From contig CAKPCU010000002.1 of NCBI GenBank assembly GCA_934148015.1, forward strand, positions 30,672 to 94,671: a stretch of DNA of 64,000 nucleotides, in the 5' to 3' direction. This document shows positions 7,640-64,000 of this stretch, in pieces. How positions within the stretch are numbered: the first letter of the stretch is position 1; the number at the start of each line of letters is the position of its first letter. The notes beneath the pieces are model-generated. The model ran no database searches and was not told the origin of the DNA. It saw only the letters and a program-made list of their open reading frames with translations. The DNA is from an uncultured Bacilli bacterium (GTDB lineage Bacteria; Bacillota_I; Bacilli_A; RF39; UBA660). The translations under genes and the position numbers were made by a program.

Positions 7640-7650
7640 ATTCTTCCTTT

Positions 7651-8220: not shown

Positions 8221-8255
8221 TGGCGACATACGTTTATGCATACGAATTTAAACAA

Positions 8256-8284
8256 AGAAAAAGAACTATCGTTTAAATAGTTCT
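8256..8284 (-). terminator. Rho-independent terminator after the 231 aa unknown gene
   Basis: Minus-strand reading: AGAACTAT, a 7 nt loop, ATAGTTCT, then TTTTTCTTT. Confidence 0.65.
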
Positions 8285-38001: not shown

Positions 38002-38021
38002 TTTACCACCTCTTTTTAAAC

Positions 38022-38238
38022 AAAAAAGCACTTCCTTAAAAAGGAGTGCTTAAAACACGGTACCATCCTTACCTTTAACTTAATTTGATAACGTGTTATA
38101 TAACACGGAAAAACCCATTACAGGTATCTGCTTAGAAGTAGTAATTTTATAATTAGTTTATCTACTTTACACCATATAATAGACTCTCTTTAAAACATCA
38201 TCATAAAATCATGTCTTCATCAATGCATTTATACCAAA
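38022..38238 (-). promoter_or_regulatory. T-box riboswitch leader
   Basis: Minus-strand reading shows an AAGAGAGTC and GGTGTAAAG stem I region, a CGTTA F-box-like element, the T-box AAGGATGGTACCGTG (38056-38070) and the terminator AGCACTCC-tttttaa-GGAAGTGCT followed by TTTTTT. Confidence 0.8.
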
Positions 38239-38267
38239 ATAATACTACTTTTATCCATTTTAGTCAA
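38239..38267 (-). promoter_or_regulatory. Sigma-A-type promoter for the T-box leader
   Basis: TTGACT, a 17 nt spacer, then TATTAT, immediately after the dnaI stop codon. Confidence 0.6.
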
Positions 38268-47905: not shown

Positions 47906-49108
47906 TTATTTTTTTAAACTATTTTTACTAGCTATTATAACTGGTACAACCTTGCATGTTTTGTCTTTTGATACCATATTTATACTTGATGTATCATTAT
48001 CTATTTTAGCTAAACTATAAGCAAATGTACTATTATCATGTCCATCTAAAAAGTAACATGTATTACTAGCTAGATATAAAAATGTACTATTTTTAAATAC
48101 ATAAGAAGCATTATTATTAGAATTATTATCTAATATGGTAGATGCCCTTGTTTTATAATCTACTTTTCCAAGTATTAAATCTGAAAGTCCTTCTTTTTTT
48201 ATAATAGTATTATCTATATCAGTTGAAATAACTTTTAATACATCTTCTACACTTAATTTTCTAGTATTAGCACTCCAACTTGATATTATATTGTTATATA
48301 ACGAATCACTATTATAAAATGTATTTTCTAAATAATTATTATCAAAACTTGGTAATAATGTAACAGTATCATCTGCTATTTTATTTTTTGTATCAATAAC
48401 ATGAGTTTTAATACATGTACTACTTATGTTATTGCATGCTTTATTATCTTTAACATCATATAAAATAAGTTTACCAAGGTCATAGTTATGATCTAATTCA
48501 TTTTCATCATCTTCTATAACCTGCTCTGCAATTAAACTTATTCCAAGTTTTATTAATGGAGATGAATTATTTGTATCTTTTTGATATTGATAAGCCTTAT
48601 TTCCCCATAAACTATCTAATTTATCATCACCAGAGTCAAGTGGCCAAGAAACAGATATTTTAAACCTATTTTCTTCACCCTTTAGTAGTACATTATTTCT
48701 ATCTAGTCCAATATTTATATGAAATGGATAGTTATGTGCTATAACATCTTCTATATAATCTGATGTGGTATCTAATGATGATGTCATATTATCTTCATTT
48801 AGTATTTTAACATATTCTATTTTATATTTAATACTTGCATCAGAATCACCTTTATTATTTATTACTATTTCTTCTTTATTCGTTTCCATGCCAGGCTTTA
48901 CATCATCAAGTGATATTACTATATCTTTTGTTGCAACCTCTTCTCCTCTTTTAAACTCTATATACCATGATTTTACAGTAACATCAGTATCTACCTTTGA
49001 TAATCCGCTATATGCAAACCAAGCAAGAGTAACTGAAATAAATGAAATAACCATAAATGTAATAGACATAATGCTAAGTCTTATATTAACTTTTCTTCTT
49101 TTATCCAT
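47906..49108 (-). CDS. Secreted TasA/camelysin-like protein (400 aa) with a SipW-cognate-type signal
   Basis: The N-terminal helix ends in VTLAWFAYS. It is followed by ISLDDVKPGMETNKEEIVINNKGDSDASIKYKI, resembling the TasA-type LKPGD...N.G strand pattern. Confidence 0.6.
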   Translation of the reverse strand: MDKRRKVNIRLSIMSITFMVISFISVTLAWFAYSGLSKVDTDVTVKSWYIEFKRGEEVATKDIVISLDDVKPGMETNKEEIVINNKGDSDASIKYKIEYVKILNEDNMTSSLDTTSDYIEDVIAHNYPFHINIGLDRNNVLLKGEENRFKISVSWPLDSGDDKLDSLWGNKAYQYQKDTNNSSPLIKLGISLIAEQVIEDDENELDHNYDLGKLILYDVKDNKACNNISSTCIKTHVIDTKNKIADDTVTLLPSFDNNYLENTFYNSDSLYNNIISSWSANTRKLSVEDVLKVISTDIDNTIIKKEGLSDLILGKVDYKTRASTILDNNSNNNASYVFKNSTFLYLASNTCYFLDGHDNSTFAYSLAKIDNDTSSINMVSKDKTCKVVPVIIASKNSLKK

Positions 49109-49136: not shown

Positions 49137-49697
49137 TTATTTACTTCTTCTTTTTTCTTCTTTTTCTAACATAAATGACAATATCTCTGAACCTATTACA
49201 TAAAATAATGGTATTATTACGAATATTAACATTCCATATTTAGTACTAACTATTTTATAAATAAGTGATAATAATTTTACTTTATATACTACAACACCAT
49301 ATAATTGATCTTGATAAACTAATGGATCTTCTACTAAGTTAGCAGTACCTTTAGTTCTAAATACATATTTACCCTTTTCATCTTTTTCTATTCCAACAAC
49401 TTTATGTGTTATAACTTTATCTCTAAAGCTTCCAGCTCTACCTAAATAACTAATAGTATCTCCTACTTTTATTTTAGAAGCATCAGTTTCTTTTGATATT
49501 AAAACATCTCCTATATCATAAGTAGGCTTCATACTTCCAGATACAACGGTAAACATTCTAAGATTGAAAAATGATAATTTATTATTACTAAATCTTTGTA
49601 ATACAACTACTATTACAAATAGTATAACTAAAAGTGCTATAACAAAGTTTAAAACACTTTTAACTATTTTTAATCCTTTATTTTCCTTCTTTTCCAT
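49137..49697 (-). CDS. sipW: Signal peptidase I, SipW/Sec11 (ER-archaeal) type
   Basis: 186 aa: N-terminal TM helix, VVSGSMKPTYDIGD (Ser), ITHKVVG (His), TKGTANLVEDP, and a C-terminal TM helix. Confidence 0.8.
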   Translation of the reverse strand: MEKKENKGLKIVKSVLNFVIALLVILFVIVVVLQRFSNNKLSFFNLRMFTVVSGSMKPTYDIGDVLISKETDASKIKVGDTISYLGRAGSFRDKVITHKVVGIEKDEKGKYVFRTKGTANLVEDPLVYQDQLYGVVVYKVKLLSLIYKIVSTKYGMLIFVIIPLFYVIGSEILSFMLEKEEKRRSK

Positions 49698-49700
49698 AAA

Positions 49701-50831
49701 TTATAAATAATCCTTTATCCTTTCCATATATTCATCCATTTCTTTTTTAAACTTTCTTTTTACCGCATCACTACCACTAGACTGTATTTTCTTTTGTTTC
49801 TTTATTTCATCTGAAATAAATCTCATAAACTCATTTTCATCTATTTTAATACCAAGAGACATTAGTAAAGAAATTATTTTATCTATTTCTTCTGCACACA
49901 TAAGTATTGCATATTTAGATAATTTTTCTTTTTGCTCTTTCTTTGATGCAGCGATAGAATCTAAAACAAAATAATTCATTAAGAAAGATCTATCTAAAAA
50001 AACTTTAATTATATTATTTCCATCAGTATCAAAATTTTCTTTTAAATTCTTAGTATCATTTAAATAATAATTTCTTAAATAATCCCATAGTTTAACAGCT
50101 ATTTGGAAGTTAGGATTCTTAAGTATAATATTTGTCTTTTTAACTTGTGAATTAATAAGTGTTATATGAGCTTTATCTAAAGCTTTAACCATTTCACTTC
50201 TCTGCCAACTTGTAATATATTCTTTTACCCTTTTTATTCTTTGTTTAATATTTTCTATTTCTTCTTCTATATTTTTATTAGTATCATCATTAGGTATTGA
50301 AGTAGAAGTTATTTTAAGTGATATATCTACTTTTTCTTTTAACGTAGTAGTATCAGCTTTATATTCTAATACTTTCTTATTATTTACTTCTAGCTCATTA
50401 AGCAAATCTTCTTTTTCTAATATAAATTTATTCATTGTATATATAAGAGAATATAAAAATCTATTTTCATATATATTATAAGTTTCTTCATTTCTTATAT
50501 CTAGTATTTTTTTAGGCTCTATATCTTTTGTTTTTTCATTTAATTTTGAAATGTAATTAGTATGTCTTGCTAAATCTTTTACACTTGCAACAGTTATCTT
50601 TTTGGCTTTTTCAACTTTAACTACCATTTCTTCTTGAACTAAAGCCATTTTTGGATTTCTAACTATTATATCAATAAAAGGACAAGCTTTTTCCATCTCA
50701 TCCATCCATTCAAAAGAAAGGGAATCTCCTAAAAAGTCAGATTTAAAGTGCATATCAGAATTAGTATTTTTCAAAAAAACTTTTGAATTTTCATTTAATG
50801 TTTCATCAACTAAGTTTTCTAATTTAGCCAT
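49701..50831 (-). CDS. Cytoplasmic partner of the AAA+ protein; McrC-N/DUF2357-like region, no PD-(D/E)xK nuclease motif found
   Basis: 376 aa. ETYNIYENRFLYSLIYTM resembles the ENRF(L/V)K element of McrC/DUF2357 proteins. The gene is tightly packed (gaps of 18 and 3 nt). Confidence 0.45.
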   Translation of the reverse strand: MAKLENLVDETLNENSKVFLKNTNSDMHFKSDFLGDSLSFEWMDEMEKACPFIDIIVRNPKMALVQEEMVVKVEKAKKITVASVKDLARHTNYISKLNEKTKDIEPKKILDIRNEETYNIYENRFLYSLIYTMNKFILEKEDLLNELEVNNKKVLEYKADTTTLKEKVDISLKITSTSIPNDDTNKNIEEEIENIKQRIKRVKEYITSWQRSEMVKALDKAHITLINSQVKKTNIILKNPNFQIAVKLWDYLRNYYLNDTKNLKENFDTDGNNIIKVFLDRSFLMNYFVLDSIAASKKEQKEKLSKYAILMCAEEIDKIISLLMSLGIKIDENEFMRFISDEIKKQKKIQSSGSDAVKRKFKKEMDEYMERIKDYL

Positions 50832-50849: not shown

Positions 50850-52358
50850 TTATATACTCTTCTTTAATGTTTCTAGGTAAGATATACATTCTTTCATTAC
50901 ACCTTTACCTACCCTTTTATTTAAATATGATATAAAAGGATCTATTTCATCTCTAATAAATGAAACACTTAATTGATCAAATTTTCTAAGTATTTTCTTA
51001 GCTAAAAAGTAATCAATTCCTTCTATTTCACTACCACCACATCCAACATATACTGGAACGAAAGTATTAAGTTGTTTCATAATACGATTACCAAATGATA
51101 TTCTAAAGTGCTTTATTACATAATCATCCATTTCACTAACTAAATCTAAGTTTGCTTTTGAAACAGGATGTTTTTCAATTGCATCTTGAAATAAACTTTC
51201 TAAATAACTAGAATTTATTTCTAATGCTTCTTGATCTCTGCATTCAAAAGGATCTACCTTAGTATTTATATCAAGTGGCATAGCACGGTCATAAACTTTA
51301 TCTGTTACCATGAATGTTGAATCATCATTATTTATAGTACCAATATACCAAAGGTTTCCTGGTAATTTAAGTTTTCCATTTGGAATTTTCTTTGGATCTT
51401 TTTCCCAACTACTTGGTACTATATCAATTATCCATTCATCTCTATTAGGCATTTCAAGGATTGATAAAAGGTCCGCAAAGTAATATTCTACTCTAGCTAA
51501 GTTCATTTCATCTAGTATGATTGTATGAACATTATCATCAAACGATGCTGTGTATATCTCACCTAATGCCTTTGTTTCAGTAAACTTCTTAGTAAACTCA
51601 TTAAAGTATCCTAAAAAGTCTGATCTATCTCTCCAAGATGGTTCAACAGAAACAACACAAGAATCTACTTTAACAAACTTACCCCAAGCGTACGCAAGTG
51701 ATGTTTTACCAGTACCAGAAATACCTTGTAATATAATTAACTTACCACAAGCTAGTCCTGCAAAAAATGGTCTTAATATATCAAAATCATAATATAATTT
51801 TAATTTACTTGCAGCAAAACATCTAAAGTCATCTATTATTTCGGTTAAACTTTCACTATTGTTATATTTTTTAACTTTATAATTAGCTAATGCTTCATCA
51901 ATAGAAACAAGCTTTGGAAATCTTATATTTGGATCTCCTTTTATTTCATCTGAAACGTCATCAGCTTCTTCATCTTCTTTTTCCTCTTCATTAGGATTAA
52001 TACCTAACTGAGAAACTTTCATTGCCATTATCTTTTCTTTTTCTTTCATAAGTTGTTTAACTTGTTCATTTAAATTACCAATTTCATTTAATAATTCATC
52101 TTTATTTAATTTTCTATTAGCTTTTCTAATCATCTTTTTAATAAATAAAACTATAAGTCCAATTACTAATAAAACAATTATAACAAGAAAAGCAATACCT
52201 ATGTATAAAAAAGACTTTTCTCCTTTACTAAAGCTTCCACTATAACTATCTATTATTTTAGCATAAGCTTTAAAATCAAACATCTTTTTTATACCGCCAA
52301 ACAGCCCTTCAAAAAAGACAGAAAGAAATTCATAAAAGAATCTTAAAAACGTATTCAT
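50850..52358 (-). CDS. Membrane-tethered McrB-family (AAA_5/COG1401-like) AAA+ NTPase
   Basis: TM helix FLYIGIAFLVIIVLLVIGLIVLFI, then a coiled/acidic linker. Walker A is LQGISGTGKTS. McrB-type elements are ILDEMNLARVEYYFADLLSILE and WYIGTINNDDSTFMVTDKVYDRAMPL. Confidence 0.7.
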   Translation of the reverse strand: MNTFLRFFYEFLSVFFEGLFGGIKKMFDFKAYAKIIDSYSGSFSKGEKSFLYIGIAFLVIIVLLVIGLIVLFIKKMIRKANRKLNKDELLNEIGNLNEQVKQLMKEKEKIMAMKVSQLGINPNEEEKEDEEADDVSDEIKGDPNIRFPKLVSIDEALANYKVKKYNNSESLTEIIDDFRCFAASKLKLYYDFDILRPFFAGLACGKLIILQGISGTGKTSLAYAWGKFVKVDSCVVSVEPSWRDRSDFLGYFNEFTKKFTETKALGEIYTASFDDNVHTIILDEMNLARVEYYFADLLSILEMPNRDEWIIDIVPSSWEKDPKKIPNGKLKLPGNLWYIGTINNDDSTFMVTDKVYDRAMPLDINTKVDPFECRDQEALEINSSYLESLFQDAIEKHPVSKANLDLVSEMDDYVIKHFRISFGNRIMKQLNTFVPVYVGCGGSEIEGIDYFLAKKILRKFDQLSVSFIRDEIDPFISYLNKRVGKGVMKECISYLETLKKSI

Positions 52359-54367
52359 TATTCTCCCCCCACGTAATTTCCAGTTTTATTTAAAATATCA
52401 TCAAAGACAACTCTTTCTAATAATTCTTCTGGAATTGAATCATATATTACAGAAGATACATTTTTCTTAAGACCTACAAATATGTATTTAACTAAATATA
52501 AATCTTTCTTTTCTTTTTCATTTAAAGATTTTTCTTCTTCTAAACTTATTGCAAACTTAAAACCTATCTTCATTAATTTTTTAATTATTTTCTTATTTTC
52601 TCTAAATTCATTTTCTCTAATTAAAATAATTATACTATTTTTAACAAATTCATCATTTAGTTTTTCAATTATTTTATTTAGTTTATTTTCTTTTTCATAT
52701 AAGGTATTAGGTAAATATATAATGTATTTATCTTTAAAGTTAAATGAGAACATATTTTTAACTAATTTACTTAATAATAAGCTAACTAGTATAATTATTT
52801 TATCTTCTGCAATTACACCTTCACTATATGTTTTATCAACAATATAATCACTATAAGCTTTACTAAAAGTTATATTATGTTCTAGATTAATACCATGTAA
52901 ATCCTTTTTAGAAGTAATACCTTTAATGTTTAGCTCAAACATACCAGTTTCTAATTTTTCTAAACTTTGTTTAATCATACCAGTATGTATTTTTTGTAAC
53001 CTTATAATTCTATTTACATTTATTAGTATATCTTCTACTTCAGAATAATTTTTTATATATTTTAGTATCTCACTTTTATATAATTCTCTTTTAGCTTTTA
53101 TATCCATATCTACTAAACTGTAATGATCTAAACTAATAATAACATTAAATATAGATAAATACTTTTCTACTTTAAGTCCATACTTTAAGTCAGTACCCTT
53201 ATATTTTTTTATTAAATTAATAGCTTCTTCTTTCATTATATCTTTAGTTTTCTTAATAGCATTACGACCATTATACATCGTATTAACATCACCAGAATAA
53301 TTGTAATACTTTCCATCTATATAAGAATTTAATAATGACTCTTTAATAGTTGCTTCATTAACTTTTAGCTTCTTATCAGTATCTAAAATACTAATTATTT
53401 CATCTAATTCTAACTTTTTAATATAAATAGCTTTTTCTAAAATACTATTAAACTTTTTCTTTCTTTCATTTAGCATTTCTAAATTACTTTCTATAATAGA
53501 TGCATCATCTTCTTCATCCTTTTTATCTTCTAACGCTACTTTTTTTATAGACTCTTTATTATCATCAATAGAAGTTTCTGCAATCTTTAAATAAGTATTA
53601 TCAAGTTCTGTTTCATCAACATTTACCATTCTAAAGAACATAGTTTTATCCAAATCTTCAGGATTAGGTCTTGCCTCTATCTCTAAATTAAGATTATTAA
53701 CAGCCTCATCTTCTTCATCTATTTCTTTTTTATTATCTACTTTTAATTCTTTAATTATTTCTTCCTTGATAGGTTTTTTATCTTCTTTTATTTTTATATT
53801 AGATAATTTATCTTTTATTTTTTTTATAAAATCTTTTCTATTTGGTGATACTTTATCAATTAATTTATTAATCTTATTATCATTTGAATTAAGATTAGCT
53901 ACATAAACTATTAAAAGTAAAAGTATAATTATAAATGGATTAAATAAAGTCTTCTTAACAAATCCAAAATGAGGAAGTACTTTAACTACTTTACCAACTA
54001 TTTGTTTTTTACTTATTGCATCATCTTTAGTATTATTAGCATCACCTTTAGTAACGTAAGTATTCTTATAAGCTTCAACTACTCTATGTGTTATAAAATT
54101 CTTACCTTTTTTATACGTAACTACATCATTTAATGAGATATCATCTGTATATTTAACTATTATCCAGTCTCCTATATTTATTTCATTTTTCATACTACCT
54201 GTTTGAACTTCAAACAATGAATATCCAAAGAAGCTAGCATAATCATTTCCTAACACTTTTACTTCTATATTGTTATATATAAATACAATTAGAACAAATC
54301 CTAGTAAAAATATTAAAATATCTAAAATAACGTTTAACACTAACTCTTTAACACTTTTTTTGCTCAT
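52358..54367 (-). CDS. SipW-type signal peptidase I fused to a roughly 500 aa C-terminal extension
   Basis: N-terminal TM helix, QTGSMKNEINIGD (Ser), ITHRVVEAY (His), TKGDANNTKDD, a second TM helix (FIIILLLLIVYVANL), then a Lys/Glu-rich linker and a roughly 200 aa alpha/beta-looking C-terminal domain. Its stop overlaps the next ATG (TAATG). Confidence 0.75.
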   Translation of the reverse strand: MSKKSVKELVLNVILDILIFLLGFVLIVFIYNNIEVKVLGNDYASFFGYSLFEVQTGSMKNEINIGDWIIVKYTDDISLNDVVTYKKGKNFITHRVVEAYKNTYVTKGDANNTKDDAISKKQIVGKVVKVLPHFGFVKKTLFNPFIIILLLLIVYVANLNSNDNKINKLIDKVSPNRKDFIKKIKDKLSNIKIKEDKKPIKEEIIKELKVDNKKEIDEEDEAVNNLNLEIEARPNPEDLDKTMFFRMVNVDETELDNTYLKIAETSIDDNKESIKKVALEDKKDEEDDASIIESNLEMLNERKKKFNSILEKAIYIKKLELDEIISILDTDKKLKVNEATIKESLLNSYIDGKYYNYSGDVNTMYNGRNAIKKTKDIMKEEAINLIKKYKGTDLKYGLKVEKYLSIFNVIISLDHYSLVDMDIKAKRELYKSEILKYIKNYSEVEDILINVNRIIRLQKIHTGMIKQSLEKLETGMFELNIKGITSKKDLHGINLEHNITFSKAYSDYIVDKTYSEGVIAEDKIIILVSLLLSKLVKNMFSFNFKDKYIIYLPNTLYEKENKLNKIIEKLNDEFVKNSIIILIRENEFRENKKIIKKLMKIGFKFAISLEEEKSLNEKEKKDLYLVKYIFVGLKKNVSSVIYDSIPEELLERVVFDDILNKTGNYVGGE

Positions 54368-54405
54368 AAATACCCCTACCTTCTAGTATCATATCTTACT
54401 AAATT

Positions 54406-54434
54406 ATTTTATCATAATAAGATGCATATTACAA
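54406..54434 (-). promoter_or_regulatory. Candidate promoter of the five-gene cassette (TTGTAA, 17 nt spacer, extended -10 TGATAAAAT)
   Basis: Read on the minus strand. It lies between the upstream terminator and the RBS of 52358-54367. Confidence 0.45.
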
Positions 54435-54458
54435 CAAAATACGACTATTTTTTTAAAG

Positions 54459-54487
54459 AAAAAACTACCAGTATTCATAACTGATAG
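54459..54487 (-). terminator. Rho-independent terminator after the inactive peptidase paralogue
   Basis: Minus-strand reading: CTATCAGT, a 7 nt loop, ACTGGTAG (one mismatch), then TTTTTTC. Confidence 0.6.
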
Positions 54488-54500
54488 CAAATGCTTATTC

Positions 54501-55031
54501 TTAAGCCTCTTCTTTTGAACCATATTTTATTTCTACAATTAAAGCATATAATTCATAAATAAATATTAAAAATGATGGAAGTAAAACTATAAATAAGAAT
54601 CCCCATTTAGACTCTATTACTGATAAAAACGTACCAACATCATGATATACCTTTCCAGGTGTTCCAACAACGTAATTAATAGAATAAGTTGAACCATTTT
54701 CATACGTAATAGCTTGTTCTTGTTCATATATTTCACCAATCTTGCCATAGTCTATGCTAACAGATCCTTTAGCATCTACTTTATACGCAAAAACATTATC
54801 ACCAACTTTTAAGTTTTCTAACTTTTGTTTTTGAACTAAAACTAAATCTCCTTTTTTATAATCATTAGTAGAAATAGCTTCTTTTAAAATAACTAATGTT
54901 TTATCCCCAAACTCAGTAAGTCCATAATCATTATAATTTAATAATAACACTGTCATAAAAATAACAAATCCAAAGAATACAACTGCTAGTATTCCTAAAA
55001 ATATATTTTTAATAAGTTTTAATGCTTTCAT
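54501..55031 (-). CDS. SipW-fold paralogue lacking the catalytic Ser and His (pseudo-peptidase)
   Basis: Same N-terminal and C-terminal TM architecture and length as sipW. However, SGSM is replaced by LKEAIS, THKV by DYGKI, and TKGxAN by YENGST. Start at MKALKLI follows an AGGAGG RBS. Confidence 0.65.
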   Translation of the reverse strand: MKALKLIKNIFLGILAVVFFGFVIFMTVLLLNYNDYGLTEFGDKTLVILKEAISTNDYKKGDLVLVQKQKLENLKVGDNVFAYKVDAKGSVSIDYGKIGEIYEQEQAITYENGSTYSINYVVGTPGKVYHDVGTFLSVIESKWGFLFIVLLPSFLIFIYELYALIVEIKYGSKEEA

Positions 55032-55136
55032 AATACCTCCTATACTACTATCCAAAATTATATCATACTTTTAAAACCTTATCAATAATAATAATTTAAT
55101 AATTTAAATCTATAAATTTATAATATTTTATAATTG

Positions 55137-56012
55137 TCAATTATTTAAATTTATCTTAAAATCATTTTTATCATAGGTTTTACCTAAATCTGTTTTATAA
55201 AAAACTATCTTAATATTTTTATTACTATCTAAATCAAATGCAATTTTATTAATAAAATCATTAGAATCTTTAGATTCTTCTTTTAAATTGCTAGTCATAT
55301 CTACTCTTAATTTATCTGAGTCAAAATAAAGTGTATAAGTCTTTTTACTATCTAAAAGATTAGATACTATAACCTCTACTTTTTCATCGTAATTATTACA
55401 ATTAAGTGTAACATCATCATTAATATTTAGCTGCCTTGAAAGAGAAAACTTTCCCTTTAAAATCTTTTTATAAGGACTTGTTGATGTAACTATTATATTA
55501 ACTTCAGCATCATTTATCTTAGTGTTATCTAAGCTTACTAGATTAAAATAAAGTTTTGCTTCACTTTTATTATCAAGCCATTCATATCCATTTTTAATAC
55601 AATCATCAAGATTATTAATATCTGTTATAACATCAGAGGTAGTATTAAAACATACTTTAGATGAAGATAACGTGCCATTATAAGTACTATCATTATCATT
55701 TATAATACATTTATAATTACTATTATTAGTAGAACACTCTACTTTATAAGATATATCATAATCAGTTATTAATGAATCATTTAAATAGTTTTTAATATCA
55801 AAATATGTATTACTACCATCCCAAGCATTATTAACATTAGATACTTCTTCTAAATCAAGACTATTACTAGAAAAGTAAAAATCTTTAGACTTATAATAAT
55901 AGTTTAAAACGTTATTATAAGCATACTTAGCAAAGGATACACCATATGTTAAAACAAGTGTAAGTACTAATATTAATATAATCATAATTCTTATCTTGCC
56001 ACTTTTTTTCAT
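55137..56012 (-). CDS. Secreted protein (291 aa) with a SipW-cognate-type signal
   Basis: The N-terminal helix ends in VSFAKYAYN. It shares the NAWDGS element with the giant protein (NTWDGS). Confidence 0.55.
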   Translation of the reverse strand: MKKSGKIRIMIILILVLTLVLTYGVSFAKYAYNNVLNYYYKSKDFYFSSNSLDLEEVSNVNNAWDGSNTYFDIKNYLNDSLITDYDISYKVECSTNNSNYKCIINDNDSTYNGTLSSSKVCFNTTSDVITDINNLDDCIKNGYEWLDNKSEAKLYFNLVSLDNTKINDAEVNIIVTSTSPYKKILKGKFSLSRQLNINDDVTLNCNNYDEKVEVIVSNLLDSKKTYTLYFDSDKLRVDMTSNLKEESKDSNDFINKIAFDLDSNKNIKIVFYKTDLGKTYDKNDFKINLNN

Positions 56013-56019
56013 AATTCAC

Positions 56020-56562
56020 CTACTTTTGCCAGCTTTTTATTTCAATATCAATATAATCAGTTATATTTGAATAACTACTATCATTATAATCTTGTGGAAA
56101 ACTAATATTTAATCTATAATTATCATTAATTTTTTCATTATAAACCATTTCAAATACATCTGAATTACATACTAAAGCATTTTCTTCATTTCTACTATAT
56201 GTTTCATCACAAGTTAAAACTAAATTACTTTTATTACTCTCTTCTTTATATAAATTAATATTTAATGGAATAAAATGATAAGTTTTTATAGTTATTGTAT
56301 AATTTAAAGTAACATCACTACTATAATTTTCATTATTATTAGAAACAGTAAAGGTATAATCTTTTAAATCACCTGGTTTTAACTCATCTAACGAAATATT
56401 TATATTATCTGTTTTCTTCCCGTCAAAAACAAATGATGCTATTTTTTCATCATCACTTGTAAGTGATGCTTTAGAATTAAATTTAGAGTATGTTATACCT
56501 GATATAAATAAAGTACTAACTATTAAAATTACTAAAATAATTATTTTCTTTTTCATAATCAT
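56020..56562 (-). CDS. Small TasA/camelysin-like secreted protein (180 aa)
   Basis: The helix ends in ITYSKFNSK. It is followed by ISLDELKPGDLKDYTFTVSNNNE, a TasA-like pattern. Confidence 0.65.
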   Translation of the reverse strand: MIMKKKIIILVILIVSTLFISGITYSKFNSKASLTSDDEKIASFVFDGKKTDNINISLDELKPGDLKDYTFTVSNNNENYSSDVTLNYTITIKTYHFIPLNINLYKEESNKSNLVLTCDETYSRNEENALVCNSDVFEMVYNEKINDNYRLNISFPQDYNDSSYSNITDYIDIEIKSWQK

Positions 56563-56569
56563 ACTCCTT

Positions 56570-59500
56570 TTATTTTGTTATAAATGCTTTATCTGTAAAA
56601 CTTATCATTTTATCATTATCGTATAAGTAAAATCTTAACTTATACAAATTATAATCTAAACTATTAGGTTTTAAATTAATAGTTATCTTATTATTAAAAT
56701 CATTTTTATTATCTACTAATAAATACATATTATCTTTATATAGTGTTAAATTATCAGATGTATAATCATTTATATTTATTTGTTTATAACTTACATCTAA
56801 TGCTGATAATACACTTTTTTTAAGTAATGATACATATATTTTAGGATTTGATAATTTACCCTTATACAATATATTATAATTCATACTGTAATTATCTAAA
56901 GTTTTCTTAATTATCTTTTCGTTACTATCTTGTATATCAAATGAGTAATTATGAGTATTCTTCTTATTTGTAACATTTAAAGGAATATTTATAGAATCTA
57001 TAGATAATATGTTATCTAATACTCCATCAAATGATAAATAAGCTTCTATATCAAAGTAGTATTTACCCTCATCTAAAATGCTATTATCTACTTTAGTTAT
57101 AATATTAAGAACTTTATTTAAAGTATCACTACTATTTGATAAATTAATATTTATTACATCTTTATTCATAGAATATTTATTATCATCTATCATAAATTTA
57201 ATGTTCTTTAAATACTTATGATCTACTATATTTTTATTTGAATCTAATACTTTTATCTTTAATCCCCATACCATGTTAAGTAAATTACTATCTATAATCT
57301 TATTTTTATTTATATAGCTATATACTTTTGATAAATTAATATCTATATTATTTTCAGAGTTACTATTATACATAACTTCATCACTATAATTAGATTTTAT
57401 TTGAGCATTAGAAGTCATATTATTGTATATATTTATTTCTTTTAAACTATTCTTTAAAGAACCTCTAACTTCGTTTTTCTTATTATCTAAAACTGAAACT
57501 GATAATATTAAACCGCTAATTTCTTCATCTATATTACAATGAGAAAAATCTACAGTTATTTTATAGGTATCATCTATATTTTTAGTTACATCTTTTTTAA
57601 ATACTTCTTTAGAAGATTTTCCAATTAAACTAAATAAGTCAAATGAATATAAGTAATATGAATCTTTTAATAAATAGTCATCTTCTTTTACATTATAAGT
57701 ATACATACTATTATTTAAATTCAAAGTTATTTTAGTATTAACAGGTAATATTTTATTTGACTTTAAGTAAAATGTATCATTATCATTAAATTTATAATCT
57801 GATTTATAAGTATATTTTAATAAAATACTAGAATTACTTGTTATATTTAATTTATCGTATGACTCATCATAGTTATTTAATATGTATAATCCTTCACACT
57901 TATAACCCTCATACAAAATTAAGTCTGATGAAGCATAAGATGCAATACCTATATTATCTAAAGCTTTAATATAAATAATAGAACTTTTATTATTTATAGT
58001 TATCTTATCTTTATAATTAGTCCATAAACTATCATCTATTAAATCTAGTTTTTCTTTATTTAAGACCCCTTCTGAAACATAATACTTAATAGATTTAACA
58101 CCAGACATTTCATCTTTAGCATTTACAAAAATGTCTAAATTTTCATTTATAAAATATATAGATGGATTATCATTTAAAGTATTTAAAGTTTTATTATTAT
58201 AACTTATCTCTATATCACATCCACTTAAATCAAGTACTAATATATCAGAATTAATATACGTAATATTATCATTATAATCAACTATTTTAGCATATATAAT
58301 GTAATACCCTTCTTCACTAATTTTCTTTGATGATGTAAATAACTGCCAGTCAGTTATATTGTTTAATTCATCATAAGATAATGCATTCTTATCTTTTTTT
58401 ATGTAATAGTATATTTCTTTAACCTTATTTAAATTATCATCTTCTTTAATATTAAACGTAATATCATTACTTACTAAAACTTCATTTAAGCTGTAGCTTA
58501 CATTATTCCAAGAATAAGAATTAATATTAATGCTCGCTAAAGGCTTATTAATATCATCGGTATATAATATTGGATAAGAATCATCTTCATATACCCAAAC
58601 ACTATTAATGTTATTTTTTATGTTATCTAAATCTGTAAATTCACTAAAGCCTAGTGTGTTAACTAAAAAGTTTTTATTTTTTAAATTAGAAGTATAAGTT
58701 ATTTTACCTGTATAATTACCTGAAAATGCATATTTACTTGATGAAGCGTATGAATTTGTTATGCTAATAGATGAAGATAATATGTTTAAAATAAAGTAAG
58801 AATCAGTTGCATTAAAAGTATTTTTTATAGAAAAGTTATTTGTATTATTTATATTTCCTATAATACCAGATGAGTTTTCTGCACTTATCTCTCCTGCGTT
58901 ATAAGTATTTGATATTAAACCAGATGCATTATTTAAGTAAGATATAATACCTGATGCTATCATTTTACTATTTATAGAGCCTGTATTATATGAATTATTA
59001 ATATTTATTTTTTCCCTTCCTAATGAAACTATACCAGATGAATAATTATAACCATATACATATGCCTTATTAATAGTATTTAAAATATTAGTATTACTAG
59101 CTTCTGAAGCAATTCCAGATGAAATACCAAGTTTATATTTTACTTTGTATTTTAAATTAGTTATTTTAATATCTTCTATCGTGTTTAATTTATATAAAAT
59201 AGATAAATTACTAGCACTACTATCTACATTTATACTAAAGTTACTACTATCTATACTATTATTATTTATAGATATACTAGATAAGCTAGAAAAGTTATCT
59301 ATTACACCTTCTAAAGTAATACTTTCTATATCATAGTAAGATAAGTTAATATTACTTAAATCTATATTTGATGAAGTACTATCTTTTGATAATAAAATAT
59401 CATCTAAACTTATTTCATTTTCTTCATAAGTATTATTATCACTACCAATTACATATCCACCATAAATAGTATTTTCTATTAAACCATTATCTACATTTGA

Positions 59501-60118
59501 TGCAATACCACCAGTTATATTTCCACCATAAATAAGTGAATTTTGTACATATAAATCTTTAACAGTTCCATTTAAATTAGTAAATAATCCAAGATATTTA
59601 GTATCTTTTTTAGTTATATAAGCACCGTATATAGTATGAGAATTACCATTAAATGTACCCTTAAAATTATTAATTGAATCAAATAAGTTAATACTACCAA
59701 CTTTATTTGTCATATCACTAGAAGAATAATAATTAGATGAATATTTATCTACAAAATAAGTATTACCATCTAATATATATTTAATTAAATTATCTTCATA
59801 TTTAAATGTACCTTTATTTATTATAATATCATTACTTAACTCAAAATAAGTATTACTATAACTTGTAGTTTTAAGCATATTACTAAAATAAGCTAACTCT
59901 GATGCATTAGAAATAATAAAAGGATCATCCTGACTTCCTGAACCACTTCTATAACTAGAAGAAATAGAGCCATCCCAAGTATTATCAATGTTTAAAGGAT
60001 TTCTATTTTTTTGTCTTGCAAAAGTCGCTATTGAAACAGATGATAGTATCAAAATAAAAATTGCTATAAGTATTATATATATTTTATTTTTTTTACTTTT
60101 AAGGTTAAACTTTTTCAT
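56570..60118 (-). CDS. Giant secreted protein (1182 aa) with GLUG-like repeats and Ig-like C-terminal modules; no LPXTG motif
   Basis: The N-terminal helix ends in IATFARQKN and is followed by NTWDGS...GSQDDPFIISNASELAYF. Repeats include GGIASNVDNGLIENTIYGGYV, SGIASEASNTNILNTINKAYVYG and SGIVSL...NNSYNTGSI. Confidence 0.7.
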   Translation of the reverse strand: MKKFNLKSKKNKIYIILIAIFILILSSVSIATFARQKNRNPLNIDNTWDGSISSSYRSGSGSQDDPFIISNASELAYFSNMLKTTSYSNTYFELSNDIIINKGTFKYEDNLIKYILDGNTYFVDKYSSNYYSSSDMTNKVGSINLFDSINNFKGTFNGNSHTIYGAYITKKDTKYLGLFTNLNGTVKDLYVQNSLIYGGNITGGIASNVDNGLIENTIYGGYVIGSDNNTYEENEISLDDILLSKDSTSSNIDLSNINLSYYDIESITLEGVIDNFSSLSSISINNNSIDSSNFSINVDSSASNLSILYKLNTIEDIKITNLKYKVKYKLGISSGIASEASNTNILNTINKAYVYGYNYSSGIVSLGREKININNSYNTGSINSKMIASGIISYLNNASGLISNTYNAGEISAENSSGIIGNINNTNNFSIKNTFNATDSYFILNILSSSISITNSYASSSKYAFSGNYTGKITYTSNLKNKNFLVNTLGFSEFTDLDNIKNNINSVWVYEDDSYPILYTDDINKPLASININSYSWNNVSYSLNEVLVSNDITFNIKEDDNLNKVKEIYYYIKKDKNALSYDELNNITDWQLFTSSKKISEEGYYIIYAKIVDYNDNITYINSDILVLDLSGCDIEISYNNKTLNTLNDNPSIYFINENLDIFVNAKDEMSGVKSIKYYVSEGVLNKEKLDLIDDSLWTNYKDKITINNKSSIIYIKALDNIGIASYASSDLILYEGYKCEGLYILNNYDESYDKLNITSNSSILLKYTYKSDYKFNDNDTFYLKSNKILPVNTKITLNLNNSMYTYNVKEDDYLLKDSYYLYSFDLFSLIGKSSKEVFKKDVTKNIDDTYKITVDFSHCNIDEEISGLILSVSVLDNKKNEVRGSLKNSLKEINIYNNMTSNAQIKSNYSDEVMYNSNSENNIDINLSKVYSYINKNKIIDSNLLNMVWGLKIKVLDSNKNIVDHKYLKNIKFMIDDNKYSMNKDVININLSNSSDTLNKVLNIITKVDNSILDEGKYYFDIEAYLSFDGVLDNILSIDSINIPLNVTNKKNTHNYSFDIQDSNEKIIKKTLDNYSMNYNILYKGKLSNPKIYVSLLKKSVLSALDVSYKQININDYTSDNLTLYKDNMYLLVDNKNDFNNKITINLKPNSLDYNLYKLRFYLYDNDKMISFTDKAFITK

Positions 60119-60170
60119 ACTTATATCACTATCCCTTCTACTTCTTTTTATCTAGTTTATATACATTAAA

Positions 60171-60179
60171 ATTATAACA
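60171..60179 (-). promoter_or_regulatory. Extended -10 element TGTTATAAT upstream of the giant gene
   Basis: Minus-strand reading. It lies just downstream of the terminator at 60199-60232. The -35 element is weak. Confidence 0.4.
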
Positions 60180-60198
60180 TAGATTTGACAAATTTAGA

Positions 60199-60232
60199 CA
60201 AAAAAATGCACCAATCATAACCAATTGGTACA
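60199..60232 (-). terminator. Rho-independent terminator after the 541 aa gene
   Basis: Minus-strand reading: TGTACCAAT, an 8 nt loop, ATTGGTGCA (one mismatch), then TTTTTTT. Confidence 0.65.
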
Positions 60233-60239
60233 TATTATA

Positions 60240-61865
60240 TTATTTCTTAATGCTTTCCTTACTTAGTATTTTTTCAACTTCTGTCATAAACCATATTTTA
60301 TTTGCAGAAGTACTACTATTATTAATTTTATTAATTCTTAATATAAGTAATATTTTATTTAATAAGTTATCTAAATTATCTGGATCCAACTCTTCTAAAG
60401 TTAACTTAATATTACTAAGTCTATACTTATTAATTATTATTTTAGCTATATCAGTATCAGAAAATACTAAAAGACCATTAACTATTATATTAGTAGGATT
60501 CATAGCATATAAATCAAACTTTTCACTTAATTCTTCTATTTCTTCATAAGTACTTAAATTATATACTCTTTGAATAGTTATCTTTTTAAAGTAATCATAA
60601 CTATAATATAAATTTAATACATCAGATATTGAAATAGTATTATTTAATATTTGAAGAACTTTATCTTTAAAATATGCTTTATCATATTTTTGATATAATT
60701 CATATAATTCTTTAGCTATACATACTGAATTAATCTTCATTTGTTTTAAATTAGAATCACTTTTAAATTCAAAGAATCCAGGTCTTCCACCAAATATCTT
60801 TTTATTTAATTTATAAAGTTCTTTTTCTTTAGCTTCTATTTTATCTACTACTTCTTTTAATTCTTTATATTCAGTTTTTTCTTTAGCATCTACTTCTTTT
60901 TTATACTCTTTTTTAAAGTCTTCAAAAAGAGGTAAAAACATAGCATAATTACTATACTCTATAACATTTAATTTTAATTTTTCTAAAATATCACATATCT
61001 TATTTAATTTATCTTTATCATTAAAATCATTTTCATCATAAAATAACGATTGTACTGCATTTGTCTTAACTTTACTATTTTCTAAATATTCATTTATATT
61101 TATTTTACCAGTCTTTGCTAAATTAGCTATATCATATATATTTTCTTTATTAGCAAAATTAAGTTCTATGTATGCTGATTTTAATTTTTCTAAACAATCT
61201 TGATAGTTTTTAATATTATTATTAACCATTACTTCTTTTTGTAATTTTATAATATAACTATTAAATTTTCTATGATTATCTTTTATTAATTTTCTAAAGT
61301 TCAACTCTATATGACTTATAATATCAGGATTTACCCAGTATATTTGCTCAAATATTTCTGATACTTTTTCATATGATAAGCTCTTTTTATTTCTAACGTC
61401 TAAAAAAGAAGACATATATTCATGTACATAGCATGTATATTTAAAATCATCACTTGTTAACTTAATACCTGCTAGTTCAAACTTATCTAAAAAGCCGTTT
61501 ATTATTTCATTTAATGATTTAAAATTAAATGTATAATAATTGTTTAATCTATATAGTAAATCATCAAAACCCATCTTTTCAAAATAACTATTTGATGGAT
61601 TAAGTAAAAATTTTACGTTTTCTAAATTTATTAGAGTATCATTTAATTTATCAAGGTTTTCTCTATCATCTTTTATTTTAATAGCTCTGTTTTTTGCTAA
61701 TATATAATTTCTAACACTATCTTTATATTCGTTATATTTATTTTCCATATCTTTTATATTAGCATTAAATTTTTTCTTATTAGTTTTTGTTTTTGTTGGA
61801 AGTGTTGATAAAAGCGTTTTCTTTGCATTAATATCTTTTACGATAAAGTCTAAAAAGTTATTCAT
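60240..61865 (-). CDS. Cytoplasmic helical protein (541 aa), unknown function
   Basis: No signal peptide or TM helix. Lys/Glu/Asn-rich with coiled-coil-like segments. ATG at 61865 is preferred over the ORF-track GTG at 61874. Confidence 0.6.
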   Translation of the reverse strand: MNNFLDFIVKDINAKKTLLSTLPTKTKTNKKKFNANIKDMENKYNEYKDSVRNYILAKNRAIKIKDDRENLDKLNDTLINLENVKFLLNPSNSYFEKMGFDDLLYRLNNYYTFNFKSLNEIINGFLDKFELAGIKLTSDDFKYTCYVHEYMSSFLDVRNKKSLSYEKVSEIFEQIYWVNPDIISHIELNFRKLIKDNHRKFNSYIIKLQKEVMVNNNIKNYQDCLEKLKSAYIELNFANKENIYDIANLAKTGKININEYLENSKVKTNAVQSLFYDENDFNDKDKLNKICDILEKLKLNVIEYSNYAMFLPLFEDFKKEYKKEVDAKEKTEYKELKEVVDKIEAKEKELYKLNKKIFGGRPGFFEFKSDSNLKQMKINSVCIAKELYELYQKYDKAYFKDKVLQILNNTISISDVLNLYYSYDYFKKITIQRVYNLSTYEEIEELSEKFDLYAMNPTNIIVNGLLVFSDTDIAKIIINKYRLSNIKLTLEELDPDNLDNLLNKILLILRINKINNSSTSANKIWFMTEVEKILSKESIKK

Positions 61866-62010
61866 TTTTATCACTTTCCTTTTCTTCTATATCAAACTTA
61901 TTATCATCCAAAAACTGTAAGAAATCTACTATATCTTGATAAACTTTTATTAGATCTTCCAAGCTTAATTTTGAAAGATCAAATCCCACTTTATTATTCT
62001 CCATTTTCAT
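61858..62010 (-). CDS. Small acidic protein (50 aa)
   Basis: Not in the ORF track. Translation: MKMENNKVGFDLSKLSLEDLIKVYQDIVDFLQFLDDNKFDIEEKESDKNE. Its stop overlaps the next ATG (ATGAATAA). Confidence 0.45.
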   Translation of the reverse strand: MKMENNKVGFDLSKLSLEDLIKVYQDIVDFLQFLDDNKFDIEEKESDKNE

Positions 62011-62028
62011 AATCTATACCTTCCCTTT

Positions 62029-63117
62029 TTAATTAAATGATGTATATCCTGTTGTATCTTTTATAAAATTAATTGAAATAGCAAGTTCAGCCCCAGATGA
62101 ATCTGTCTCTAGACTATCTATATCTTGTCCTTCTATCCATACATAGACTCTCATTTTAGTAACTCCATTTGGAATTGAAAATAACGGAGTATCAAATTCT
62201 GTATCTGTAATAGTTTGTTGTTCTTCAAAATAATTCATATCCATTGCAGAAGAGCCTGATACTGTATCTTTTACATATATTGGTCCTCCAGCTTTTTTAT
62301 AAGCATATGTTGGAAACTTTTCGCCATCCTTTAAATTTATACCATATTCTTTAGCTTTTTCTTTTGACATATTAGTATGAATTCTACTATTAGGTTCAAA
62401 TATAATTGATCTGCAATTATTATTACAAGATAAATTTTGTATTGTTCTATAATCAGTATCTAAAGGTGCACTACCTACTTTAACAAATCCTATTCTAGTT
62501 GAATTAACAAGACCTTGCATTTCCTCTGTTTCTCCATCATCTATGGTAACTTCTGTTCCAAAGTCTAAAAATAAATTATCATCTACAGGAGAACCTGTAT
62601 CATTCTTAACAAATAAATCAAATGCTATAAATGAGCTGTAAGGATATATTCCTTTTTCTGTTAATAATTTAGTATTAACAAATCCATTTTTTTGATTTTT
62701 ATTTCTGTACATAACCCCTGCACTAGAATATATTTCAAATTTTGATTTATTACTATCTCTAACACCTAGTGTAGATACTGGAGTAAGTCCCATCGCAGCC
62801 CACTGACTAGTATTATTAGGATATGTATTTTTTAAGTTATTTATAAGCGTTTCTCTAGATATTTCAACATAATTATCATAGTTAATAGCATCAAAAGATA
62901 TTTGAAGACCACTATTTTTTGTTACTATCATATTAAACGTTTTAACCTTAACATTTAAGTTTGTTGAAAACCATGCATATGTTGCTGCAATTAAAGTAAT
63001 TCCTAAAAAAACAATACTTGTAATTAAAAGAGGGCGATTTTTCTTATGAAGTAATACTCTTTCTTTTACTTTGTTTTTTCTTTTAGCTCTGCTTTTAACA
63101 GTCTTAGTATTTTTCAT
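62029..63117 (-). CDS. Secreted protein with a SipW-cognate-type signal; paralogue of 63191 to beyond 64000 (candidate fibre subunit)
   Basis: The helix ends in ATYAWFSTN. The C-terminus KMRVYVWIEGQDIDSLETDSSGAELAISINF matches its neighbour. Start at MKNTKTV follows the RBS AAAGGTGGTGA. Confidence 0.6.
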   Translation of the reverse strand: MKNTKTVKSRAKRKNKVKERVLLHKKNRPLLITSIVFLGITLIAATYAWFSTNLNVKVKTFNMIVTKNSGLQISFDAINYDNYVEISRETLINNLKNTYPNNTSQWAAMGLTPVSTLGVRDSNKSKFEIYSSAGVMYRNKNQKNGFVNTKLLTEKGIYPYSSFIAFDLFVKNDTGSPVDDNLFLDFGTEVTIDDGETEEMQGLVNSTRIGFVKVGSAPLDTDYRTIQNLSCNNNCRSIIFEPNSRIHTNMSKEKAKEYGINLKDGEKFPTYAYKKAGGPIYVKDTVSGSSAMDMNYFEEQQTITDTEFDTPLFSIPNGVTKMRVYVWIEGQDIDSLETDSSGAELAISINFIKDTTGYTSFN

Positions 63118-63143
63118 ATAATCACCACCTTTTAAATACAAAC

Positions 63144-63174
63144 GAAGAGTAATTATAAATATTTATTACTCTTC
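63144..63174 (-). terminator. Perfect 10-bp intercistronic hairpin (possible attenuating terminator) between the two paralogues
   Basis: GAAGAGTAAT, an 11 nt loop, ATTACTCTTC, followed on the minus strand by GTTTGTATTT. Confidence 0.5.
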
Positions 63175-63190
63175 ATTTATTTATAATTTT

Positions 63191-64000
63191 TTATTCTCCA
63201 TCTTGAGATGTTGTTGGAGTAATATCAGTACTTGGTCCTTCATAATTTACATCAGTTTCAGTAAATCTTTCTTTAGTGAATCCAAAGTTAATTGATATTT
63301 TCTTTCCAAGTGATGCGAAATCATAGTTATCAACATCTTGACCTTCGATAAATACATATACTCTAACCTTTGTAATACTATTAGGAGCTAAAGTCATAAA
63401 TGTAGGTCTTTCAGTTCCTTTTTTATTTTTCATAGTATCTGTAAAGTATGGAAAATCAACTAATTTGTATTGTGATTTATCTTCTGCTTGAGCATATGTA
63501 GCATAATCTACAGTACTGTTTTCATAACTGTTATAACCAGCTCCATCATATACATCAACGTTATCAGCTATAGTAAGTGCTCTTGAAATAGCATATGTTG
63601 GTTTAGCTTCTGTAGTAGTAAATGTTGCACAGTTAGTTTTTGCACCATCTCCTAATGTAGTATCATAAGAAGCTGCATCAGTAACATTAGTTCCTTCTGG
63701 TTTTCTCTTTAAGCATGAAGTTTCATACCAATTAATAGCATTTTGAACGTGTGCAGTATCATTTGGTTCCCAAATTTGAGCACTACGGCAAATACCAGTT
63801 ACTTGAGCTTTACCATCTGCTGCTTCAACATTAGAACATGTAATACCAGTTATATTAGTTGCATCAGTAGTATCTCCTTTAACACGACCAATTTGTGCAA
63901 AGGCAACTCTAACAGAGTTTTCAATACCAGTTCCATTTTGACCAGTTGAAGCAACTTTAACAGCTGAATTAGTTGTTAAATAAATAGCTTCTTCGTTTAA
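63191..64000 (-). CDS. Secreted paralogue of 62029-63117 (candidate major subunit); the 5' end lies beyond the window
   Basis: The ORF-track 80 aa ORF (63191-63433) is only the tail. The same frame stays open with no stop up to 64000. Manual translation: ...VRVAFAQIGRVKGD...GICRSAQIWEPNDTAHV...KVRVYVFIEGQDVDNYDFASLGKKISINF. Confidence 0.7.
   Translation of the reverse strand, partial: LNEEAIYLTTNSAVKVASTGQNGTGIENSVRVAFAQIGRVKGDTTDATNITGITCSNVEAADGKAQVTGICRSAQIWEPNDTAHVQNAINWYETSCLKRKPEGTNVTDAASYDTTLGDGAKTNCATFTTTEAKPTYAISRALTIADNVDVYDGAGYNSYENSTVDYATYAQAEDKSQYKLVDFPYFTDTMKNKKGTERPTFMTLAPNSITKVRVYVFIEGQDVDNYDFASLGKKISINFGFTKERFTETDVNYEGPSTDITPTTSQDGE

Follow-up and report, generated by a model that had tools for sequence, protein, structure and literature searches.

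Introduction

SipW of Bacillus subtilis is a signal peptidase of the S26B, endoplasmic reticulum/archaeal type, which processes TasA and TapA; it comprises ~190 amino acids (aa) and carries a short tail after its second transmembrane helix (TM2). The present study concerns a 669-aa SipW-type enzyme in which TM2 is followed by ~510 additional, probably cytoplasmic residues. The gene lies in a stretch of 64,000 nucleotides, hereafter called the window, from an uncultured Bacilli bacterium (GenBank assembly GCA_934148015.1, contig CAKPCU010000002.1, positions 30,672 to 94,671), with a G+C content of 24.6%. Like SipW, the enzyme is of the Ser/His catalytic type, has N- and C-terminal TM helices and is encoded near TasA/camelysin-like exported proteins. 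In an earlier examination of the letters and open reading frames (ORFs), the sequence-only reading, it was proposed that the tail may end in a degenerate EAL-like domain, by which the peptidase would be linked to an intracellular nucleotide signal or to the adjacent AAA+ protein.

Non-catalytic EAL proteins have been known from several systems. FimX is a receptor of cyclic di-GMP (c-di-GMP) that acts on the type IV pilus ATPase via PilZ, LapD is likewise a c-di-GMP receptor, and YdiV/RflP is a ligand-free anti-FlhDC factor.

The closest description of the genes next to the peptidase is found in the literature on McrBC, the relatives of which are typically restriction systems (PMC11090510). A class named CoCoPALM was introduced by Bell et al. 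(eLife 2024), who gave it two sentences and deferred the analysis to a later publication (PMC11090510). According to these authors, CoCoPALM comprises an NxD-type clade of McrB-like GTPases fused to an FtsB-like TM/coiled-coil segment and a DUF2357 McrC homologue, usually with a coiled coil and without an active nuclease, and is associated with proteins of the signal-peptidase family (PMC11090510). A search of the text and supplements of that article found 'EAL' zero times and no mention of a third component or of a peptidase-tail fusion, and no later paper using the name CoCoPALM was found. As far as could be searched, therefore, both the fusion and the EAL fold reported below are undescribed.

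A Conserved Module beside a McrB-like NTPase and a McrC-N Protein

The fusion gene and its two downstream partners occupy the following positions in the window.

52358..54367, minus strand: whole gene, a 669-aa SipW-type signal peptidase with a putatively cytoplasmic tail (single ORF, 379 relatives of the same architecture, fused in 73 of 80 loci)
50850..52358, minus strand: downstream partner 1, a 502-aa McrB-like NTPase with an N-terminal TM helix (McrB matches in the PDB, motifs)
49701..50831, minus strand: downstream partner 2, a 376-aa protein with DUF2357, the N-terminal domain of McrC (PF09823, 45.7 bits against a cut-off of 23.3)

In order to compare gene order, ORFs were called in 80 species-level genome loci and then searched with the window proteins. 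Loci without the fusion, seven in number, contain a tail ORF that is devoid of the peptidase part, mostly at contig ends or with apparent frameshifts. Immediately after the tail comes the AAA+ gene in 78 of the 80 loci, the other two stopping at a contig edge, and at most 20 bp separate the two genes in every case. The stop codon of the window's fusion gene overlaps the start of the AAA+ gene (TAATG), so that the two are translationally coupled. In 68 loci the DUF2357 gene is next in line; the remaining loci break off at the end of their contigs.

The same neighbours were found where the module stands on its own. An exhaustive search with the tail alone covered 1.84 billion representative proteins, and non-fused modules are of two types: stand-alone proteins of ~320-350 aa, spanning tail residues ~340-635, and proteins of ~600 aa with a different N-terminus (598 aa in the TM-anchored form). 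In relatives P0199 and P0229 this N-terminus consists of a signal/TM segment and a charged stretch, and in P0253 of a long acidic low-complexity region. The order module, ~476-514-aa protein, DUF2357 protein was observed in the neighbourhoods of the fused relatives P0084 and P0098, of the stand-alone P0211 and of the TM-anchored P0199. Since the McrB-like NTPase and the DUF2357 protein accompany the module in its peptidase-free forms as well, a functional tie of the tail to the adjacent AAA+ protein, as the sequence-only reading had suggested, is supported, and this is the strongest result of the study.

The AAA+ protein has a TM helix at ~50-74, which is followed by a charged helical stretch. 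Its Walker A (GISGTGKTS), Walker B (IILDEMN) and signature (GTINNDD) motifs are all at least 90% conserved in 71 orthologues, and in PDB sequence searches it matched McrB alone (7vsr and 6hz4; E ~2e-3 over the whole AAA+ domain). By family, then, this McrB-like NTPase is predicted to be a GTPase. Its first 11 residues, MNTF.RFFYEF (52326-52358, minus strand), are also at least 90% conserved in the 71 orthologues; such conservation ahead of the TM helix is unusually strong for a pre-TM position. In the case of the DUF2357 protein, no nuclease domain was detected, no other Pfam or PDB match was obtained, and a conserved D...(D/E)xK pattern was not found in 67 orthologues.

Comparison with the CoCoPALM description (PMC11090510) revealed a close correspondence. 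The GTPase of the window belongs to the NxD branch, as its GTINNDDSTF segment contains the N-x-D and the second D described there; it has an N-terminal TM segment in the place of a DNA reader; its McrC homologue consists of DUF2357 and a helical charged region without a nuclease; and signal-peptidase genes are present in the locus, in an arrangement conserved in 80 loci. As the NxD signature, the TM anchor, the nuclease-less DUF2357 partner and the association with signal peptidases are all present, the locus, by its sequence features, matches a member of the named but unstudied CoCoPALM class. By Pfam, which gave no FtsB/DivIC match, a homology of this TM segment to FtsB could not be reproduced. 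This class membership had escaped the sequence-only reading.

With canonical McrBC type IV restriction the window pair shares an AAA+ NTPase bearing a McrB-type signature and, presumably, stimulation of this NTPase by the DUF2357 protein. It differs in being without a DNA-binding domain and without a PD-(D/E)xK nuclease, in being membrane-anchored and in its place inside a secretion/fibre operon. Another explanation is that the McrB-like/DUF2357 pair and the tail form an anti-phage defence cassette within a surface-protein operon, the tail acting as sensor or effector. The restriction function typical of McrBC relatives (PMC11090510) and a match of the AAA+ protein to the PADLOC candidate PDC-M26A (2.5e-37) speak for such a cassette. 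That match, however, extends over residues 187-309 only, the AAA+ core; the searches revealed neither a nuclease nor any other effector domain, and the module is fused to a SipW enzyme in 73 of the 80 loci. Moreover, the species-level genomes share one gene order, which includes TasA-like genes and two further SipW genes, and lack the patchiness of defence islands. Because of the lack of an effector and the fixed synteny with secretion genes, we rejected the defence cassette as the main explanation and regard it as highly improbable.

The Peptidase Domain and the Location of the Tail

The enzymatic part of the protein is encoded at the 5′ end of the gene.

53888..54367, minus strand: residues 1-160, S26B/SipW-type peptidase domain between two TM helices (TIGR02228, hydropathy, invariant residues)

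The 669-aa ORF was recovered at exactly the positions given in the sequence-only reading, 52358-54367, and lies on the minus strand; the complete SipW-type peptidase ascribed to residues 1-160 in that reading was confirmed. TIGR02228 (sigpep_I_arch) matched residues 14-157 with 69.1 bits and thus exceeded its curated cut-off of 51.85. The motifs GSMKNE, THRVV and TKGDANN were located at residues 57-62, 93-97 and 106-112, and the catalytic domain is flanked by TM helices at ~9-31 and ~140-158 (Kyte-Doolittle hydropathy with 19-aa windows, peaks at ~4-22 and ~134-145). Ser58 of GSM, His94 of THR, Asp109 and Asp115 are unvarying in 120 of 120 full-length relatives, which makes the enzyme one of the Ser/His and not of the Ser/Lys type; since these residues never vary, the peptidase part is predicted to be complete and active. 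The Bacillus SipW equivalog model NF046067 gave 59.3 bits, below its cut-off of 190, and the protein is therefore to be seen as a SipW-type enzyme and not as an orthologue of Bacillus SipW.

A search for S26B peptidases with long C-terminal extensions was productive. Residues 240-669 were scored against 5.8 billion proteins, and among the 8,000 candidates scored, 379 relatives with the peptidase and tail architecture were found at the cut-off of E ≤ 1e-3. The best 120 of these 379 have lengths of 455-765 aa and a tail identity of at least 40%; most of them carry a precomputed N-terminal Peptidase_S24 match, and the few source names among them are solely 'signal peptidase I' or 'signal peptidase'. 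The recurrence of the architecture indicates that the fusion gene is real.

The positive-inside rule is obeyed by TM1, with a mean K+R count of 3.9 on the N-terminal side versus 1.3 after the helix. The flanks of TM2 are similar in K+R density on both sides and do not discriminate between topologies. In SipW topology the catalytic domain is outside, and, taken with the charges around TM1, this would leave the tail in the cytoplasm. The stand-alone homologues are soluble without any signal, and the partner needs cytoplasmic NTP, which argues for the same side. The cytoplasmic location proposed in the sequence-only reading is thus consistent with the data.

Architecture of the Tail and Its EAL Fold

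The tail could be divided into a linker, a helical domain and a C-terminal domain.

53513..53887, minus strand: residues 161-285, a highly charged, poorly conserved linker (conservation profiles)
53615-53656, minus strand: linker motif D..KT..FRM..VD, residues 238-251 (at least 80% conserved; recognisable in P0199 and P0229)
53039..53512, minus strand: residues 286-443, a conserved domain predicted to be all-helical (AlphaFold2 model with a predicted local distance difference test score, pLDDT, of 83; occurs in stand-alone homologues)
52361..53038, minus strand: residues 444-669, a domain of predicted EAL fold without the EAL catalytic constellation (AlphaFold2 model with a pLDDT of 82.6, Foldseek)

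The family alignment contains conserved tail blocks at 296-440 and, very conserved, at 470-600. The linker motif may be regarded as a candidate docking peptide, and the variants P0199 and P0229, in which it is recognisable too, are TM-anchored and carry no peptidase. The helical domain, ~160 aa that the sequence-only reading had not set apart from the rest of the tail, contains the segment YIDGKYYNY, and Tyr349 and Tyr354 are nearly invariant; it was matched to no known family by Pfam or PDB sequence searches. Searches of Pfam, NCBIfam, PADLOC and PDB sequences with the whole protein, residues 240-669 and residues 470-669 left the tail without a match.

Structure prediction was more informative. 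The template-free AlphaFold2 model of residues 286-669 (pLDDT 83, predicted template-modelling score 0.84) consists of an all-helical part, a β-hairpin and repeated β/α units, and residues 438-669 modelled alone, again without templates, gave a pLDDT of 82.6. The C-terminal domain comprises one long helix, a β-hairpin (477-484/487-497) and five parallel β/α units with strands at 547-551, 579-584, 604-609, 628-631 and 653-655. The strand/helix alternation that the sequence-only reading had noticed by eye in the last ~200 aa is reproduced by both models.

When the model of the whole tail was compared with the PDB by Foldseek, EAL domains came out on top (Bd1971, FimX, MucR and BifA; E from 1.6e-3), and other TIM barrels, TrpA and RPE, appeared at E ~0.5-1 only. 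For residues 438-669 all 50 matches listed are EAL domains; 19 matches have E ≤ 1e-3, and the Foldseek probability ranges from 0.93 to 1.00 among the 50. The best match is FimX (4ag0_B, E = 3.1e-6). FimX and LapD, both of them non-catalytic receptors, take the top ranks, and the list further includes YahA/PdeL, RocR and the ligand-free YdiV. The spacing of successive strand ends, 54/33/25/22/24 aa, may be compared with ~57/33/32/23/36 in PdeL, as read from the alignment. Since the Foldseek matches listed are EAL domains, the modelling supports the resemblance suspected by eye at the level of the fold.

Sequence-profile methods gave a different answer. PF00563 did not match the protein or its tail at E ≤ 10. 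When 74 diverse members were scanned singly against Pfam, peptidase families alone recurred, and none of the 25 most-matched families listed is PF00563. As an EAL reference set we took six domains of E. coli K-12 (PdeL, PdeH, PdeK, PdeG, BluF and RflP/YdiV). The hhalign comparison of a 146-sequence tail profile with these six gave probabilities of 0.1-1.2% (0.2% in local mode) and an empty result when a global alignment was forced, and a hidden Markov model (HMM) of the six scored the tail ORF at E = 4.5, that is, as noise, though in a leave-one-out control it recovered PdeG at 7e-60. By sequence profiles, then, there is no link between the tail and EAL. With relaxed settings hhalign returned a non-significant, co-linear alignment over ~170 columns, in which the hairpin is paired with the YQPI/EAL strands, 'GYxFA' with 'aLDDFG' and 'DYIFIDKK' with 'DyiKIDk'.

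The stand-alone branch of ~335 aa (e.g., P0211, at 7474-8481 of locus L005) has 'GY.FA..LDD' at β5, where the fused P0001 has 'FAISLEEE'. As 'LDD' is kept at β5, nearer to the EAL 'alDDFG' than in the fused branch, the stand-alone form may be the less degenerate one. A profile search with this branch, aimed at canonical EAL proteins, gave 130 matches, of which the best 120 are unannotated or 'hypothetical protein' and without a Pfam domain.

A rival reading is that convergence or an artefact of modelling accounts for the likeness to EAL, and that the tail is a generic α/β scaffold serving as spacer or oligomerisation device. The low hhalign probabilities (at most 1.2%) and the absence of EAL among the Pfam families listed for the 74 members would be expected in that case. 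The match is also a moderate one, with template-modelling scores (TM-scores) of 0.35-0.55 and root-mean-square deviations mostly of 7-12 Å, and the modelled barrel has seven strands and no eighth, so that it appears incomplete. Nevertheless, chance or modelling error would have to account for 50 listed matches that are all EAL, with no other TIM or Rossmann folds and probabilities of 0.93 and above, as well as for the strand spacing and the β5/β6 motifs ('GYxFA..LDD' in stand-alone members, 'DYIFIDKK'), which follow the order of EAL blocks. Strong conservation of the module and its obligate linkage to the GTPase pair argue against a passive spacer. On this evidence an artefact or convergence seems quite unlikely.

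Conserved Residues and the Question of a Ligand

In 146 non-redundant members, which elsewhere share no more than ~20-45% identity, seven residues, F477, S506, E521, Y548, K559, K562 and G602, reach a conservation of 96% or more. These invariants are not those of EAL enzymes, in agreement with the claim of the sequence-only reading that the catalytic residues are replaced. The Lys of KxD corresponds to Phe630 on β6, the Glu of EAL falls on a variable site, and a conserved ExxE or DD is absent; none of the catalytic/metal constellation (E of EAL, R, N, ExxE, DD, K, E of EGVE, Q) is conserved in the family. We read the C-terminal domain as a probable distant EAL homologue that has completely lost the catalytic constellation.

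In comparison with the known non-catalytic EAL proteins, FimX, LapD and YdiV are structural matches that have lost the catalytic residues, and the partner binding established for them is what we propose for the tail; FimX, in addition, regulates a filament-assembly NTPase. FimX and LapD both retain a PF00563 sequence and c-di-GMP-binding residues, and the tail domain has neither. It further differs from the non-catalytic EAL proteins in apparently being without the eighth strand and in being preceded by a family-specific helical domain.

Like FimX and LapD, the domain might itself be a receptor of c-di-GMP or of another nucleotide, gating the GTPase pair and/or the peptidase. Besides the best structural matches, which are non-catalytic c-di-GMP receptors, one of them controlling a pilus-assembly ATPase, the invariant K559, K562, S506 and E521 favour a receptor in that they follow strands β2/β3, the ligand face of EAL domains. 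EAL domains, however, bind c-di-GMP and metal through a set of residues (E and R of EALxR, N, ExxE, DD, K, E, Q) to which the family has no conserved counterparts. Neither was a signalling context encountered: an Rfam scan revealed no c-di-GMP riboswitch in the window (gathering threshold, and E ≤ 1 on 54300-64000), a negative that is not conclusive because the operon start lies beyond the window edge, and none in nine related loci; a canonical EAL gene was found with the six-domain E. coli HMM neither in the window nor in 1.08 Mb of 89 related loci. The nucleotide sensor envisaged by the sequence-only reading is thus unsupported, and a receptor of this kind appears unlikely. The gathering-threshold scan of the whole window, 1-64000, had zero matches of any family, so that a T-box leader proposed for 37231-38267 is not confirmed at the curated score of Rfam.

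The same invariants may be read in yet another way, as the Ser/Glu/Tyr/Lys site of an EAL-derived barrel re-tooled into an active enzyme of new specificity. That the seven residues conserved at 96% or more are mostly polar or aromatic is in keeping with a catalytic site; a protein-protein interface would equally yield conserved residues. E521 is located in a predicted helix and not at a strand end, a metal-binding acidic cluster is not conserved across the family, and no similarity to characterised enzyme families was found in Pfam, in PDB sequence searches or in the 74-member scan. We consider a new enzyme very unlikely.

Proposed Role of the Module

A docking or coupling adaptor between the GTPase pair and the peptidase is the role that we favour for the tail module and, by analogy with the non-catalytic EAL proteins, think fairly probable. 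An active S26B signal peptidase would be held by its two TM helices with the catalytic domain outside the cell, and its C-terminus would continue into the cytoplasm as a floppy charged linker with its motif, a helical domain and a dead EAL-fold domain. The helical and EAL-fold module would be no accessory of the peptidase; it would constitute the third core component of a McrBC-derived, CoCoPALM-type system, the other two being the membrane-anchored McrB-like NTPase and the nuclease-less DUF2357 (McrC-N) protein. Fusion to SipW would tether the module at the membrane in this lineage. Docking or coupling would be achieved through partner binding, as in YdiV, FimX and LapD, and a cytoplasmic GTPase pair would thereby be linked to the peptidase processing the operon's exported TasA-like or adhesin-like proteins. 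Most likely the tail interacts physically with the GTPase pair. The analysis shows the domain architecture, the fold, the loss of EAL residues, the invariant linkage of the genes and their translational coupling; we infer the cytoplasmic location, the contact with the GTPase pair and the outcome of the coupling.

Several observations weigh against the adaptor as formulated here. The fold match is moderate and the barrel apparently incomplete, sequence profiles give no link to EAL, and the charge distribution around TM2 is indifferent as to the side on which the tail lies. The residues of the tail were mapped onto EAL motifs by strand order and a non-significant alignment, and the conserved polar residues S506, E521, K559 and K562 could form a ligand-binding or catalytic site.

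A wider proposal may be put forward tentatively, and we would call it doubtful at present. The helical and EAL-fold module, a membrane-tethered GTPase ring and the McrC-N protein might constitute an uncharacterised NTP-driven membrane machine, in which an exapted EAL domain, here joined to the signal peptidase, serves as the coupling subunit and cytoplasmic GTP hydrolysis gates or energises SipW-dependent processing and assembly of a surface fibre or adhesin in small-genome gut Bacilli.

Other Genes of the Locus

The remaining genes of the cassette that are close to the fusion are listed below.

54501..55055, minus strand: degenerate SipW-like paralogue, 184 aa, upstream of the fusion (TIGR02228 match of 13.6 bits only)
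49137..49697, minus strand: second SipW-type signal peptidase of ordinary length, 186 aa (TIGR02228, 78.3 bits; position conserved in 80 loci)
47906..49108, minus strand: 400-aa exported protein with an N-terminal signal-like hydrophobic helix, the last cassette gene (sequence; position conserved)

The locus thus has two intact SipW-type genes, one of them fused to the tail module, and one degenerate. An orthologue of the degenerate gene is found directly upstream of the fusion in most loci in which the upstream flank is covered, and so this pseudo-peptidase is maintained by selection. The 400-aa exported protein has no family match. The fixed order of the operon is giant surface protein, two TasA/camelysin-like genes, degenerate SipW, fusion, AAA+, DUF2357, SipW and the ~400-aa protein.

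In loci L039, L068, L074 and L076 the block of giant protein, TasA-like genes and dead SipW is replaced, and three p370-like genes and a p544-like gene lie directly upstream of the fusion; the cargo is swapped and the five-gene core retained. Cassette contigs labelled Muribaculaceae, Ignavibacteriales or Actinomycetes (L017, L021, L026, L086 and others) are probably mis-binned or mislabelled.

Significance

The current view of SipW-dependent fibres of the TasA type is that they form extracellularly, with no source of energy. The present gene permanently joins a dedicated signal peptidase to the conserved partner of a restriction-derived GTPase pair, which points to cytoplasmic control of, or energy input into, a Sec/SipW-dependent surface structure. 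Were it true that coupling between GTPase and peptidase drives or gates fibre assembly, the interest would be high. The CoCoPALM class would gain a third core component with a recognisable fold, and the tail would be a further case of an EAL fold put to a use other than c-di-GMP chemistry. At least 80 species-level genomes carry the system, which is common among uncultured gut Bacilli and Mollicutes-like bacteria, and the closest match comes from a metagenome-assembled genome of a Hadza sample. Being so widespread among these gut organisms, it may shape their attachment in the gut.

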